64,000 bases of DNA, from NCBI GenBank assembly GCA_900542395.1, contig UQNM01000001.1, positions 863 through 64,862 of the forward strand. Direction: 5' to 3'. Of the stretch, positions 944 to 25,946 are shown piece by piece (positions within the stretch are counted from its first letter, which is position 1; the number at the start of each line of letters is the position of its first letter). The position numbers and the translations under genes were made by a program. The stretch comes from an uncultured Eubacteriales bacterium. Lineage in GTDB: Bacteria > Bacillota > Clostridia > Christensenellales > Aristaeellaceae. Below the pieces are notes generated by a model. The model saw only the letters and a program-made list of their open reading frames with translations, was not told where the DNA came from and did not search any database.

Positions 944-1110
944 GCTGTCAAGCTCAATCCAGATTTTTCAAGAATCAAACAACTAAGCATTTTCAGAATA
1001 TGGGGCTTTGCCCCATCGCCCCACCAAAGGGCTTTCCGATCGCCCTTTGGAAACCTTCGGGCGAAAACTCCTAGTTTTTCTTGAAATATCTGTTTTATTA
1101 GCTTGACAGC
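944..1110. repeat. Family A MITE-like intergenic repeat, copy 1, bounded by inverted repeats GCTGTCAAGCT ... AGCTTGACAGC
   Basis: ~170 bp element with terminal inverted repeats and an internal GC hairpin (aaagggctttccg/cgccctttgg); homologous copies at 20259-20449 and 25779-25946. Confidence 0.7.
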
Positions 1111-1158
1111 TCTTTCTTTTATGCGCTTACGCGCCTATACGGCGCGTTTCCGTCCGGA

Positions 1159-1962
1159 TCAGGGCTGCTTGCCGATGTAAGCCAGAATGCCGCCGTCCAC
1201 ATAGAGGATGTGGCCGTTGACGAAGTTGGACGCATCGGAAGCGAGGAACACCGCCGGTCCCTGCAGATCCTCGGTCTTGCCCCAGCGCGCGGCCGGAGTC
1301 TTGGAGATGATGAACTGGTCAAACGGATGACGGCTGCCGTCCGCCTGACGCTCGCGCAGCGGCGCGGTCTGCGGGGTCTCGATGTAGCCCGGTCCAATGC
1401 CGTTGCACTGGATGTTGGCCTCGCCGTACTCGGAGCAGATGTTGCGGGTCAGCATCTTCAGGCCGCCCTTCGCCGCCGCGTAAGCGGAAACCGTCTCGCG
1501 GCCCAGCTCGCTCATCATGGAGCAGATGTTGATGATCTTGCCGTGGCCCTTCTCGATCATGCCCGGAATACAGGCCTTGGAGACGATGAACGGCGCGTTG
1601 AGGTCAACGTCGATCACCTTGCGGAAATCGGCCGCGCTCATTTCGAGCATCGGGATGCGCTTGATGATGCCGGCGTTGTTGACCAGAATGTCGATCACGC
1701 CGACTTCCTCGCGAATCTGAGCGACGGTCTTCTGCACCGCTTCCTCATCGGTCACGTCGCAGACATAGCCGTGCGCCTTGATGCCCTTCTCCTCGTAGGC
1801 AGCCAGACCCTTGTTGACCAGATCCTGATTGATATCGTTGAAAACGATGGTCGCGCCCGCCGCAGACAGCGCGTTGGCAATCGCGAAGCCGATGCCGTAG
1901 GACGCGCCGGTGACGAAAGCAATCTTGCCCTCCAGGCTGAAATTCTTCATAAACTCGTTCAT
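1159..1962 (-). CDS. kduD: 2-dehydro-3-deoxy-D-gluconate 5-dehydrogenase (SDR family)
   Basis: TGASYGIG Rossmann motif and YxxxK SDR catalytic motif; ATG at 1962 preceded by GGAGG; adjacent to kduI. Confidence 0.8.
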   Translation of the reverse strand: MNEFMKNFSLEGKIAFVTGASYGIGFAIANALSAAGATIVFNDINQDLVNKGLAAYEEKGIKAHGYVCDVTDEEAVQKTVAQIREEVGVIDILVNNAGIIKRIPMLEMSAADFRKVIDVDLNAPFIVSKACIPGMIEKGHGKIINICSMMSELGRETVSAYAAAKGGLKMLTRNICSEYGEANIQCNGIGPGYIETPQTAPLRERQADGSRHPFDQFIISKTPAARWGKTEDLQGPAVFLASDASNFVNGHILYVDGGILAYIGKQP

Positions 1963-2062
1963 TGGAAAGAAGCCTCCTTCTGTATATTTCCGCACGACCC
2001 GCCTTTTTTCAAAAAGGCAGCAGCCGTGTGATTGGCCGTTTTTGCCTGACCCCCGGCGCGCG

Positions 2063-2899
2063 TCAGCGCAGGTCGATCGGGTCGATGTTGTCCATGTCGT
2101 CAAATTCCTGATTCTCGCCGCACATGCCCCAGATGAAGGTATAGTTGCTCGTGCCCACGCCGGTGTGAATCGACCAGGACGGGGAGATGACGGCCTGCTC
2201 GTTGTGCATCAGCAGGTGGCGGGTCTCGGTCGGCTCGCCCATCATGTGGAAGACGACGTTGTTATCCTTGAGATCGAAGTAGAAATAGACCTCCATGCGG
2301 CGCTCGTGCGTGTGGCAGGGCATGGAATTCCAGTTGCTGCCCGGCGCAAGCTGGGTCATGCCCATGCACAGCTGGCAGCTCTGCATGACCGCCGGATGGA
2401 TGTACTGGTTGATGACGCGCTTGTTGCAGGTTTCCACGCTGCCCAGCGGGCGCTTGTTGGCCTTGTCGATGTCGATCTTGACGGTCGGATAGGTCTTGTG
2501 CGCGGGGCAGGTGTTGATGTAGAACTTGGCCGGGTCGGCGGGATCGTCGCTGGTGAAGCTCAGCGTCTTCGCGCCCATGCCGACATACAGGCCGTCGTAC
2601 TGCTTGAGATCGTACTCAACGCCGTCCACGGCGATCTTGCCCTTGCCGCCGATGTTGATGACGCCCATCTCGCGGCGCTGAAGGAACGTATCGGAGGCCA
2701 GCTCCTTGCAGCCGACCAGCTCCACGCTCTTGCTGACGGGCATCACGCCGCCGGCGATGATGCGGTCAAAGTGGGAATACGTCAAAATCGCGTCGTCCGG
2801 CGCGAACACGGTCTCGATGAGGTATTCGCCGCGCAGGCGCTCTGTCGTATAATGCTTGGCGTCTTCCGAAGCGGAAGGCTGGCGAACGGTAAGCTGCAT
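2063..2899 (-). CDS. kduI: 5-dehydro-4-deoxy-D-glucuronate isomerase (cupin)
   Basis: KduI-like sequence over its full length; start MQLTV at 2899 preceded by AGGAGG. Confidence 0.85.
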   Translation of the reverse strand: MQLTVRQPSASEDAKHYTTERLRGEYLIETVFAPDDAILTYSHFDRIIAGGVMPVSKSVELVGCKELASDTFLQRREMGVINIGGKGKIAVDGVEYDLKQYDGLYVGMGAKTLSFTSDDPADPAKFYINTCPAHKTYPTVKIDIDKANKRPLGSVETCNKRVINQYIHPAVMQSCQLCMGMTQLAPGSNWNSMPCHTHERRMEVYFYFDLKDNNVVFHMMGEPTETRHLLMHNEQAVISPSWSIHTGVGTSNYTFIWGMCGENQEFDDMDNIDPIDLR

Positions 2900-23867: not shown

Positions 23868-23869
23868 GC

Positions 23870-25771
23870 ATGATGGGACGAAACAGAAACGCCGGAAAGC
23901 CCGGCGCGAAGAACCCCGGCAAGACGTTTAAGCGCATCATGGCCGAGATCATGGGTCGATATAAGCCGCACTGCGTCGCGGTCGTGCTCTGCCTGATCGT
24001 CAGCGCGGTGGCCAACGTCTACGGCACGATGTTCATGCAGCGCCTGATCGACGATTACATCACCCCGATGATCGGCCGCCCCGACCCGGATTTCGGCCCG
24101 ATGGGGCGCGCCGTGCTCGGCGTCGCGCTGGTGTACCTCCTCGGCGCGTTCAGCGCGTGGCTGTACAATTACCTGATGATCTTCGTCTCGCAGGGCACGC
24201 TCAAAAACCTGCGCGTCAAGCTCTTTTCCAAGATGGAGCGCCTGCCGATCAAGTATTTTGACACGCATGCCCACGGCGATATCATGAGCGTCTACACCAA
24301 CGACATCGACACCATGCGGCAGATGATTTCCCAGTCCATGCCGCAGCTCATTTCCAGCGTCGTGACGATTGTGAGCATCGTGATCTCGATGATCATTCTC
24401 AACGTGCCGCTGCTGATCATCACGCTGTTCATGGTCGCCACGACGATGACGCTCTCCGTCAAGCGCATCAAGAGCGCCGGGCGCTTCTTCGTCGCCCAGC
24501 AGCAGGATCTGGGCAGGGTCAACGGCTATATCGAGGAGATGATGGACGGCCAGAAGGTCGTCAAGGTCTTCTGCCACGAGGAACAGAATTTCGCGGGCTT
24601 CAAGCAGCTCAACGATTCCCTCCGCGAGAGCGCCTACAACGCCAACCGCATCTCCAACACCATCATGCCGCTGACGATGGCGATGGGCAACCTGAGCTAT
24701 GTGCTCTGCGCGGTGGTCGGCGGCCTGCTGGCCTCCGGCGGCTACCTCGGCCTGACCATCGGCACGCTGGTCTCCTTCCTGACGCTGAATAAGAGCTTTA
24801 ACCAGCCGATCAATCAGGTCTCCCAGCAATCCAATTCCATCATCATGGCGCTGGCGGGCGCGGAGCGCGTCTTTGACCTGCTGGATGAAGCGCCCGAGGT
24901 GGATGATGGCTATGTCACCCTCGTCAACGCGAAGAAGGACGAAAACGGCGTCATCACCGAAAGCGACGGCCGCACCGGCCTCTGGGCGTGGAAGCACACG
25001 CACAAGGACACGGGCGAAACCGAGTATCGCGAGCTGAAGGGCGACATCGTGATGGATCACGTCGATTTCGGCTACAGCGACGACAAGATGGTGCTTCACG
25101 ACATCAAGCTCTACGCCACGCCGGGGCAGAAGATCGCGTTCGTCGGCTCGACCGGCGCGGGCAAGACGACCATCACCAACCTGATTAACCGATTCTATGA
25201 CATTCAGGATGGCAAGATCCGCTACGACGGCATCAACATCAACAAGATCAGGAAGGACGACCTGCGCCGCTCGCTGGGCATCGTGCTTCAGGATACGCAC
25301 CTGTTCACCGGCACGGTGATGGAGAATATCCGCTACGGCCGTCTGGACGCGACGGACGAGGAATGTATCGAGGCCGCCAAGCTCGCCAACGCGGACGGCT
25401 TCATCACCCGCCTGCCGGACGGCTACAACACCATGCTCAAGGGCGACGGCGGCAACCTCTCGCAGGGGCAGCGTCAGCTTCTGGCCATCGCGCGCGCGGC
25501 GGTCGCCGATCCGCCCGTGCTGATTCTCGACGAGGCGACCAGCTCGATCGACACCCGCACCGAGGCGCTCGTTCAGGCCGGCATGGATTCCCTGATGAAG
25601 GGGCGCACCACGTTCGTCATCGCGCACCGCCTGTCCACCGTGCGCAACAGCGACTGCATCATGGTGCTCGAACAGGGGCGCATCATCGAGCGCGGCACGC
25701 ACGACGAGCTGATCGCCCAGCGCGGCAAATATTACCAGCTCTACACCGGCGATTTCGAGGAAAACGATTGA
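23870..25771 (+). CDS. ABC transporter permease/ATP-binding protein (partner half of a heterodimeric exporter)
   Basis: Walker A GSTGAGKT, LSQGQRQL signature. Confidence 0.85.
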   Translation: MMGRNRNAGKPGAKNPGKTFKRIMAEIMGRYKPHCVAVVLCLIVSAVANVYGTMFMQRLIDDYITPMIGRPDPDFGPMGRAVLGVALVYLLGAFSAWLYNYLMIFVSQGTLKNLRVKLFSKMERLPIKYFDTHAHGDIMSVYTNDIDTMRQMISQSMPQLISSVVTIVSIVISMIILNVPLLIITLFMVATTMTLSVKRIKSAGRFFVAQQQDLGRVNGYIEEMMDGQKVVKVFCHEEQNFAGFKQLNDSLRESAYNANRISNTIMPLTMAMGNLSYVLCAVVGGLLASGGYLGLTIGTLVSFLTLNKSFNQPINQVSQQSNSIIMALAGAERVFDLLDEAPEVDDGYVTLVNAKKDENGVITESDGRTGLWAWKHTHKDTGETEYRELKGDIVMDHVDFGYSDDKMVLHDIKLYATPGQKIAFVGSTGAGKTTITNLINRFYDIQDGKIRYDGININKIRKDDLRRSLGIVLQDTHLFTGTVMENIRYGRLDATDEECIEAAKLANADGFITRLPDGYNTMLKGDGGNLSQGQRQLLAIARAAVADPPVLILDEATSSIDTRTEALVQAGMDSLMKGRTTFVIAHRLSTVRNSDCIMVLEQGRIIERGTHDELIAQRGKYYQLYTGDFEEND

Positions 25772-25778
25772 TAATGAG

Positions 25779-25946
25779 GCTGTTAAGCTAATAACACCGA
25801 TATTTCAAAAATAAAAATAAGTATTTTCGCCCCGAAGGTTTCCAAAGGGCGACCGGAAAGCCCTTTGGTGGGGCGATGGGGCAAAGCCCCATATCCGAAA
25901 TACATGGATATTTGCTTCTTGAAATGTTCGGTCTATGCTCAATAGC
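25779..25946. repeat. Family A MITE-like repeat, copy 3 (right end degenerate; possible extension to about 26048)
   Basis: Starts with GCTGTTAAGCT directly after the ABC gene stop; internal homology to copies 1 and 2. Confidence 0.6.

Follow-up and report, generated by a model that had tools for sequence, protein, structure and literature searches.

A strain-variable palindromic repeat family occupies terminator positions in uncultured gut Clostridia

The small palindromic repeats that lie between bacterial genes, as represented by the REP, REPIN, Correia, and ERIC families, have to our knowledge received much study in Proteobacteria and a few Firmicutes, but very little in the uncultured Clostridia that are abundant in the human gut. 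The Correia elements of Neisseria are ~100-160 nt long, are co-transcribed with their neighbours, and have reported effects on termination, RNA processing, and promoters; they carry 26-bp terminal repeats as well as an IHF site, and their TA target is duplicated. The ERIC/IRU repeats of enterobacteria and the bcr1 repeats of the Bacillus cereus group span ~127-160 nt and show orientation-dependent RNA effects. A REPIN is an inverted doublet of a conserved REP unit with a less conserved spacer in between (PMC3116915), and a miniature inverted-repeat transposable element (MITE) is defined by terminal inverted repeats of at least 10-15 bp and a flanking target-site duplication of 2-10 bp (PMC11602168). 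Here we describe Family A, a repeat present in three copies in a 64,000-nt stretch of DNA from an uncultured Eubacteriales bacterium (contig UQNM01000001.1; the whole stretch is referred to as the window), for which a preliminary description had proposed either a non-autonomous MITE or a REP-like terminator or stabiliser cassette. Family A is a new family within a known general kind, the bacterial intergenic palindromic repeats. It is a sharp-ended, multi-copy, and strain-variable cassette with a selected core, which occupies terminator positions, makes no target-site duplication, and undergoes flips and module exchange in place.

The three copies are real and align over their full length at 944-1110, 20259-20449, and 25779-25946, exactly as previously described, and the mobile unit reaches 3 nt outside the terminal GCTGT and ACAGC, usually as GGG...CCC. 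Copy 1 (941..1113, minus strand) is a short variant of 167 nt from GCTGT to ACAGC plus 3 nt at each end (nhmmer E 4e-47), copy 2 (20256..20452, plus strand) is a long variant of 191 nt plus 3 nt at each end (nhmmer E 6e-56), and copy 3 (25776..25949, plus strand) is a short variant with a degenerate right end (GCTCAATAGC; nhmmer E 3e-44). A 41-nt block is identical across all three, a 31-nt core occurs three times in the window against zero occurrences expected by chance, and the motif GCTGTYAAGCT is found exactly five times in the window, every time at a copy end, the sixth end being the degenerate one of copy 3. Some details of the preliminary description need to be amended. The copy lying opposite to the other two is copy 1, not copy 2; the insertion of ~20 bp assigned to copy 2 is in fact a discrete hairpin module of 25 nt (GCGCC AAACT GGCGC, TGCGCCAAACTGGCGCCGTAAACGC; 20330..20354, plus strand), which is inserted in the loop of a 9-bp core hairpin and recurs family-wide; and terminal inverted repeats of 11 nt are too short a description, the whole element being an imperfect palindrome with ~60 bp per arm. 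The reported start within 5-15 bp of a stop codon applies to copy 2, located 13 nt after the stop of TrmO (20245), and to copy 3, located 7 nt past an ABC-transporter stop (25771), but not to copy 1, which lies 48-50 nt from the stops of both convergent neighbours, an acyltransferase (stop 893) and an SDR/gluconate 5-dehydrogenase (stop 1159). Copy 2 is also placed between convergent genes, TrmO being faced by an MBL-fold hydrolase (stop 20476). The absence of any encoded protein is borne out, since the longest internal open reading frame, of 22 codons on the antisense strand, lacks a ribosome-binding site and is put out of frame by the 25-nt module.

Many metagenome contigs of a 'Clostridiales bacterium' that is very prevalent in the human gut encode proteins identical in sequence to those flanking the three copies, and the presence of the cassette varies among strains of this species at all three window sites. 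At site 1, the element is absent from 4/10 same-species contigs, which contain a plain terminator hairpin instead: the empty allele, AAAAAAA GCCGAGCTTCCTCT AAT AGAGGAGGTTCGGC TTTTT, forms a 19-bp hairpin of -29.6 kcal/mol between A7 and T5. The filled alleles of this site have identical arms and appear in three module states (short, 25-nt, and 48-nt). The empty allele of site 2, represented by one contig (L093), reads AAAAAC GCTCAAGCCTT CGCTGAAA AAGGCTTGAGC GTTCTTTT and contains a 14-bp stem of -23.1 kcal/mol, which our scan calls as a terminator; the junctions are AAAAAC(GCTCAAGCCTT CGCTGAAA AAGGCTTGAGC)GTTCTTT in the empty versus AAAAAC(AGG GCTGTC..GACAGT CCT)GTTCTTT in the filled state. The short variant occupies this site on six contigs, the long variant on one contig and in the window, and a different short copy in the opposite orientation, with exactly the same flanks, on two contigs; contigs L133 and L195 provide a further example of a flip in orientation at a fixed site. 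At site 3, most strain contigs are without the element and carry 30 unrelated and unstructured nt in its place. The filled allele thus represents at all three sites a substitution of ~30 nt rather than an insertion with duplication, and the segment removed at sites 1 and 2 is precisely the terminator stem-loop, with the A- and T-tracts retained. Orthologous sites of different species show either short variants paired with long ones or the element paired with plain terminators. A scan of 36-58 kb of the window in other strains yielded no further empty/filled sites.

The surroundings of site 3 contain two resident features outside the element. A plain terminator (GTGTCCCC..GCGGGGGATTTTTTT; 25990..26022, plus strand) lies 3' of copy 3 and is common to empty and filled alleles, and a strong promoter-like site (TTGACAGCCTCAT...TGGTATAAT; 26036..26066, plus strand) precedes a gene coding for 208 aa and is also common to the empty alleles. 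The junctions of this copy exhibit inverted microhomology to nearby sequence (slashes mark the junctions): ATGAG/GCTGTTAA mirrors the resident TTGACAGC/CTCAT, and GC/TTCTTTT mirrors the resident AAAAGAAGC. Moreover, the first 13 nt of the promoter-like site are the reverse complement (12/13) of the left junction of copy 3. In some strains (contigs L113-L116, which correspond to the window from about position 26000 onward), the sequence past the ABC-transporter terminator is fully unlike that of the window and the contigs end, suggesting another insertion or rearrangement in this stretch between genes.

A genome scan with 25 nt of the core as query, which covered one genome per species and yields lower bounds for all counts, recovered at least 91 stretches in at least eight species-level metagenome-assembled genomes (MAGs) of uncultured Clostridia, whose sources are human gut (including Hadza) and roe-deer gut. 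In total, the family comprises at least 100 copies in the genome collection plus 65 metagenome loci, with 69 distinct sites in the sample; with more than 100 copies it is not confined to the three loci of the window, a confinement that the preliminary description had regarded as incompatible with a spreading element. The 65 metagenome loci represent a second and independent sample, chosen by the two terminal repeats only at a spacing of 142-172 nt. The same core is carried by 65/65 of them (as an exact 25-mer in 50, with 1-4 mismatches in 14, and more diverged in one), so that core conservation is not an artefact of selecting on the core, and none of these 65 sequences bounded at 142-172-nt spacing contains any other cargo between the ends. 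The unit can be written as NNN-GCTGTCAAGC...GCTTGACAGC-N'N'N', in which the arms are palindromic and rich in AT and the tip is formed by an asymmetric core of two hairpins that hardly varies. Aligning 78 copies with their flanks gives the consensus (A-rich) GGG GCTGTCAAGCT, AT-rich arm, GCGCCCGAAGGTTTCCAAAGGGCGA, a single N or a module, CGGAAAGCCCTTTGGTGGGGCGATGGGGCAAAGCCCCAT, arm, AGCTTGACAGC CCC (T-rich), with a conservation of ~99% in the core versus 55-90% in the arms. The terminal repeats (GGG)GCTGTCAAGCT / AGCTTGACAGC(CCC) are conserved to 70-98% per position and are as long as the 10-15 bp or more expected of a MITE. The elements measure 167-207 nt and fall into three size classes, of ~167 nt (no module), ~192 nt (25-nt hairpin module), and ~204 nt (48-nt module), both module types being located in the loop of the 9-bp core hairpin. 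No 25-nt or 48-nt module was found outside Family A, which rules out that the modules are independent mini-elements. Many short-read MAG contigs, such as L044, L049, L050, L053, L056, L057, and L073 of URJN01 (UMGS1056), start or end inside a Family A copy, making the family a frequent cause of assembly breaks.

The predicted fold of each window copy is one long hairpin that branches at its tip (-71, -101, and -86 kcal/mol), with z-scores of -5.8 to -8.8 for the three folds. The core extends over 986..1062 (minus strand) in copy 1, 20307..20395 (plus strand) in copy 2, and 25828..25892 (plus strand) in copy 3. As folded in copy 1, it consists of a CGCCC/GGGCG stem, an 8-nt bulge GAAGGTTT, the 9-bp hairpin CCAAAGGGC/GCCCTTTGG, a linker TGGGGCGAT, and a hairpin GGGGC-AAA-GCCCC. 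The single loop nucleotide in GGCGA(N)CGG varies freely (C in 32, G in 14, T in 8, and A in 4 copies), the adjacent positions are invariant, and the module stems have experienced at least five independent compensatory double substitutions (e.g., GCGGC/GCCGC and GTGCC/GGCAC), which together indicate that the core is under purifying selection and not merely young. Rfam returned no match on the copies at gathering thresholds; the best one at E<=10 was RAGATH-36 with 12.6 bits versus a threshold of 70.

To judge the gene context of the copies, we relied on a crude gene caller of our own based on codon scores; near the window copies, its genes agree with the tool-called ones. Copies are almost always found behind the 3' end of a gene, with one orientation preferred. 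When the core is placed on the top strand, the gene to the left is directed toward the element in 49/58 cases (tandem 25:6, convergent 22, divergent 1), and the sample selected by terminal repeats gives 20:3 by copies and ~11:2 by sites, with no divergent case. Within the convergent contexts, the stop on the sense side is the nearer one in 16/22. The left flanks are A-rich and the right flanks T-rich: a run of at least four T occurs at +3 to +16 in 56% of the copies, T reaches a frequency of 46-62% at +4 to +12, and the base of the cassette stem is formed by GGGGCTGTC/GACAGCCCC. Another terminator-like hairpin within 130 nt downstream accompanies 7/129 copies and is absent in 122/129, so that most of these genes are followed by no terminator-like structure other than the cassette. 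It is this position and composition that suggest an action of the cassette as terminator, and many housekeeping transcripts probably owe their 3' ends to the cassettes.

Target-site duplications were not detected in 48 copies, in which direct repeats of 2-9 nt at end offsets of 0-7 never exceeded a cross-copy control, nor in the three empty/filled allele comparisons, where ~30 nt are substituted instead. In copies that are each other's closest relatives but occupy different sites, the similarity extends over the 3 nt outside GCTGT/ACAGC (identity 0.70-0.78 versus 0.55-0.72 for all pairs) and no farther; the unit therefore has sharp ends, which argue against variable conversion tracts, and the A/T-rich flanks belong to the target. 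Among the solo matches to terminal repeats in ~0.9 Mb, neither solo ends nor an autonomous partner were found, no partner insertion sequence or transposase was seen in ~1.5 Mb, and none was found near the copies, the neighbours and the genes between paired copies all being housekeeping. When 1.53 Mb of fragments, drawn from several genomes, were searched by tblastn for Y1/HUH transposases, no match with E<1 was obtained; this is a weak negative, with less than one genome's worth per species and an approximate IS200 TnpA query.

Several other ways of accounting for the cassette were considered and rejected. An insertion into the loop of a retained terminator stem does not apply, because flank complementarity exceeds the cross-copy control only over the first 3-5 nt (permutation p = 0.30 for positions 4-15), and locus L080 with its 13-nt palindromic flanks is thus not the rule. 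Plain terminators are not decayed hairpins of terminal repeats either, as stems of this type are not enriched among 289 plain terminators. The sole case of this kind is a plain terminator at L003 6445-6480, whose stem resembles the terminal repeat alone (GGCTGTCAGGC GAAA GCTTGGCAGC TTTTTT), either as a deletion remnant or by chance. An outward promoter starting from the TTGACA in the terminal repeat has no consistent -10 region, and empty alleles, too, contain the TTGACAGCCTCAT...TATAAT site at 26036. An inverton is rejected because oppositely oriented copies of the same site are unlike each other in their arms and in their modules; there is also no convincing outward promoter. Integron attC sites are imperfect palindromes with RYYYAAC / GTTRRRY core sites, which follow a cassette open reading frame and form an array next to intI; the ends of Family A (AGCTAAC / GTTTAAG) misfit this consensus, and its copies are scattered after housekeeping genes and not arrayed. 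A phage association was dismissed with a single IMG/VR contig to its credit. This is the only contig from the viral collection with a full long-variant copy (L127 5319-5508, UViG_3300006502_000121).

A view on further repeats in the same genomes places the core in a wider context. A check for GGGGCAAAGCCCC elsewhere revealed a separate double-hairpin (DH) repeat with 45 distinct copies in ~1.5 Mb, which has the form GGGAAaT, 9-bp stem, loop tca, return stem, yGGGG, 7-bp hairpin, CGTTCCCC, and is often located 0-11 nt from a stop codon. Changes on both sides are seen in 9/16 of its base pairs, including pairs outside the search selection, and the DH-bearing loci have no Rfam match. Examples of DH loci are L046 2732-2908, L087 5402-5631, and L030 626-825. 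Stand-alone DH units also form inverted doublets that fold into long hairpins. A covariance model (R1) was built from 34 stand-alone DH units only, with no Family A sequence among them, and its E values are roughly calibrated. In the window it retrieves a genuine DH copy (42841..42909, plus strand; 55.5 bits, E 3e-18), located in the 3' untranslated region of dnaA, with the stop of this gene (42901-42903, minus strand) on one side and a plain terminator (42819-42841) on the other. Its next three matches are the Family A cores in sense orientation, those of copy 1 (23.8 bits, E 1.4e-6), copy 3 (23.3 bits, E 2.2e-6), and copy 2 (21.3 bits, E 1.2e-5). As judged from this model, the internal GC hairpin mentioned in the preliminary description is a diverged member of a REP-like superfamily, carried on a long inverted-repeat stem. 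DH itself looks like an undescribed REP-like system of gut Clostridia.

We lean toward regarding Family A as a non-coding and mobile REP/REPIN-like hairpin cassette in terminator position, which is copied by a structure-recognising route. The RNA of the cassette, transcribed from the upstream gene, would form a long hairpin of -70 to -100 kcal/mol with a U-rich tract behind it and would take over the job of the displaced bidirectional intrinsic terminator and of a 3'-end protective hairpin; we propose that insertion is tolerated because the cassette supplies the function of the terminator it displaces. Copying would take place in trans by a non-DDE route, for which a hairpin-specific enzyme acting on single-stranded DNA, of the HUH/Y1 type (RAYT-like) and recognising the conserved core as for REP/REPIN, would be the likeliest agent, and ectopic conversion via the homology of the palindromic copies may then give rise to flips and module swaps. 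We are more hesitant about the extended proposal that DH units, REPIN-like doublets, and Family A constitute one undescribed REP-like system spreading by hairpin swap, in which the terminator stem-loop goes out and the cassette comes in between the same A- and T-tracts and no duplication is made; this seems possible to us, but on the doubtful side.

A number of observations weigh against our interpretation. No HUH/Y1 gene or other transposase was found in the sampled DNA, and we know of no description of RAYT or IS200/IS605 transposition in which one hairpin is substituted for another. What the cassette replaces at site 3 is a stretch of 30 unstructured nt, and with the resident terminator 45 nt further on it is neither replacing a terminator nor needed as one. 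The simple terminator scan does not call the cassette, its stem and loop exceeding the limits of the scan. Predicted sense RNA is ~8 kcal/mol more stable than antisense RNA in 51/59 copies, but this excess traces to 2-3 G.U columns in the consensus, and new single changes to G.U equal those to A.C. A case for strand selection at the RNA level from the counts of G.U versus A.C pairs had to be given up for the same reason, the 126:31 excess being reduced to consensus columns; the orientation of the copies suggests strand-specific RNA selection and does not prove it. The orientation bias may possibly stem from the replication strand rather than from transcription. Finally, most stand-alone DH units run antisense to the gene at whose stop they lie, whereas the Family A core has the reverse polarity.

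Three competing explanations were weighed. A classical MITE, that is, a deletion derivative of an insertion sequence (IS) moved in trans by a DDE transposase binding the GGGGCTGTCAAGC terminal inverted repeats, would share with Family A the repeats of 14-17 nt at the ends, the small size, the missing open reading frame, and the many dispersed copies with strain polymorphism. Even the paired changes in both repeats (14 observed versus 5.1 +/- 2.1 in shuffles) would fit a co-evolution with such a transposase. However, neither the 48 copies nor the three empty/filled sites show a target-site duplication, ~30 nt of target being removed and not duplicated, and the terminal repeats are less conserved than the core, the reverse of a typical MITE. 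Each of the 65 metagenome sequences with terminal repeats spaced 142-172 nt apart is the small element and none a longer partner, and the sampled DNA contains neither solo IS ends nor a transposase. We therefore consider a classical MITE highly improbable. The non-autonomous MITE of the preliminary description was apt with regard to a dispersed, non-coding, multi-copy repeat with terminal inverted repeats, but no duplications were detected, and no autonomous element with the same ends was seen in the sampled DNA. Its other proposal, a REP-like terminator or stabiliser cassette, fits much better, as the copies lie at terminator sites, replace terminators, vary among strains, and have a core within a REP-like superfamily.

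The cassette may also spread with no dedicated enzyme at all, through errors of host repair or replication at hairpins, combined with ectopic gene conversion that homogenises the palindromic copies. This might involve an SbcCD-type cut in a terminator hairpin of the lagging strand, after which end joining captures a copy, or template switching between terminators. Such a route would account for the loss of the resident hairpin with no duplication, for A- and T-runs differing by +/-1 at the junctions, for flips and module swaps at fixed sites with unchanged flanks, for the inverted microhomology of the site 3 junctions, and for the lack of an enzyme gene in the sampled DNA. Yet each end is sharply set 3 nt beyond GCTGT/ACAGC and closest relatives have not carried any flank along, which argues against variable conversion tracts; the stronger purifying selection on the core than on the arms and the orientation bias are left unexplained; and more than 69 independent sites would be a surprisingly efficient accident. 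On these grounds we judge it rather unlikely. Another explanation starts from the host, with Family A as a structured cis-regulatory RNA element of 3' untranslated regions, such as a protein-binding or small-RNA-like module on a terminator stem, which is under selection and only incidentally mobile. The orientation in sense to the upstream gene at ~20 nt or less from stop codons, the invariant core with its freely varying loop nucleotide and covarying module stems, and the higher stability of the sense RNA would all suit this explanation. Against it, all three window copies are dispensable, being absent in some strains of the same species, the upstream genes are functionally unrelated (TrmO, ABC exporter, SDR, FabD, HslUV, and UvrA), the opposite orientation is tolerated at the same site, Rfam contains no match, and new G.U and A.C changes are balanced, which makes a host regulatory RNA improbable.

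The three sites represent natural experiments within one species, offering empty, filled, flipped, and module-swapped alleles in which a terminator position was taken without a transposon footprint. If the swap is enzymatic, it would constitute an undescribed route of structure-targeting recombination and would indicate how REP-like DNA colonises genomes harmlessly. A hairpin swap, if true, would mean that insertion follows a new chemistry or that a hairpin-specific enzyme is put to a new use, and selfish DNA would spread at near-zero cost by means of a cassette supplying the very function it destroys. The cassettes are also strain-level markers in a very prevalent gut species.

Apart from these elements, the window contains two more repeat families. 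One of them (6824-6948, 55048-55162, 41578-41612, and 50723-50763) consists of a terminator hairpin, GCTATTCTCCCCCC-TTC-GGGGGGAGAATAGC, with a conserved extension of ~70 nt; it has 26 copies in the sampled loci and provides the only stem motif enriched among the 289 plain terminators. The other (42606-42680, 56227-56271, 37015-37060, and 50836-50869, also 42676-42776 / 56048-56148) consists of GTCACGSCTACGSCGTGCCAS followed by a CTCCCTC..GAGGGAG hairpin, with a compensatory G/C swap in the first stem between copies, and forms a BIME-like mosaic with the DH unit downstream of dnaA. The 5' part of a group II intron (63865-64000, plus strand; Rfam group-II-D1D4-3, 88.6 bits) runs off the window end. 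The genes dnaN (17303-18499, minus strand) and dnaA (42901-44226, minus strand) are 25 kb apart and not adjacent, and the cumulative GC skew is lowest near 16-18 kb, which makes it possible that the window includes the replication origin.

Comparison with the described systems shows where Family A belongs and where it departs from them. The REP/REPIN-RAYT systems, including those of Pseudomonas and the BIMEs of E. coli, are likewise extragenic, non-coding, and multi-copy with long hairpins in single-stranded DNA or RNA, and share with Family A a conserved short hairpin unit whose pairing is kept by compensatory changes, the lack of a target-site duplication, and the occurrence in mosaic clusters with other repeats. 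For REPINs, as far as we know, neither optional loop modules nor the replacement of a terminator stem-loop has been described. The doublet organisation of REPINs (PMC3116915) is matched by the inverted doublets of stand-alone DH units. Family A is arranged differently from such a doublet: conserved REP units form the arms of a REPIN around a variable spacer, whereas Family A carries one conserved unit at the apex and less conserved arms and terminal repeats. REP/REPIN systems are also accompanied by RAYT, a single-copy Y1 HUH gene with REP units at its flanks, whereas no RAYT gene was found for Family A in the sampled DNA. Correia (NEMIS) elements resemble Family A as palindromic intergenic repeats with terminal inverted repeats and length variants, but duplicate a TA target, whereas Family A makes no duplication and deletes ~30 nt of its target. 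ERIC/IRU and bcr1 are similar imperfect palindromes in transcribed intergenic regions near 3' ends and are strain-variable; they have no sequence relation to Family A, and bcr1 is associated with a TTTAT duplication. We know of no case in which either of them substitutes for a terminator hairpin or carries a nested REP-like core. Bidirectional intrinsic (Rho-independent) terminators, finally, share with Family A the GC-closed stem, the A-tract and T-tract, and the location after stops and between convergent genes, and the empty alleles of sites 1 and 2 are exactly such terminators. Family A differs from them by a stem-loop of 170-210 nt versus 20-40 nt, by its more than 100 copies of the same sequence, and by its conserved branched tip.

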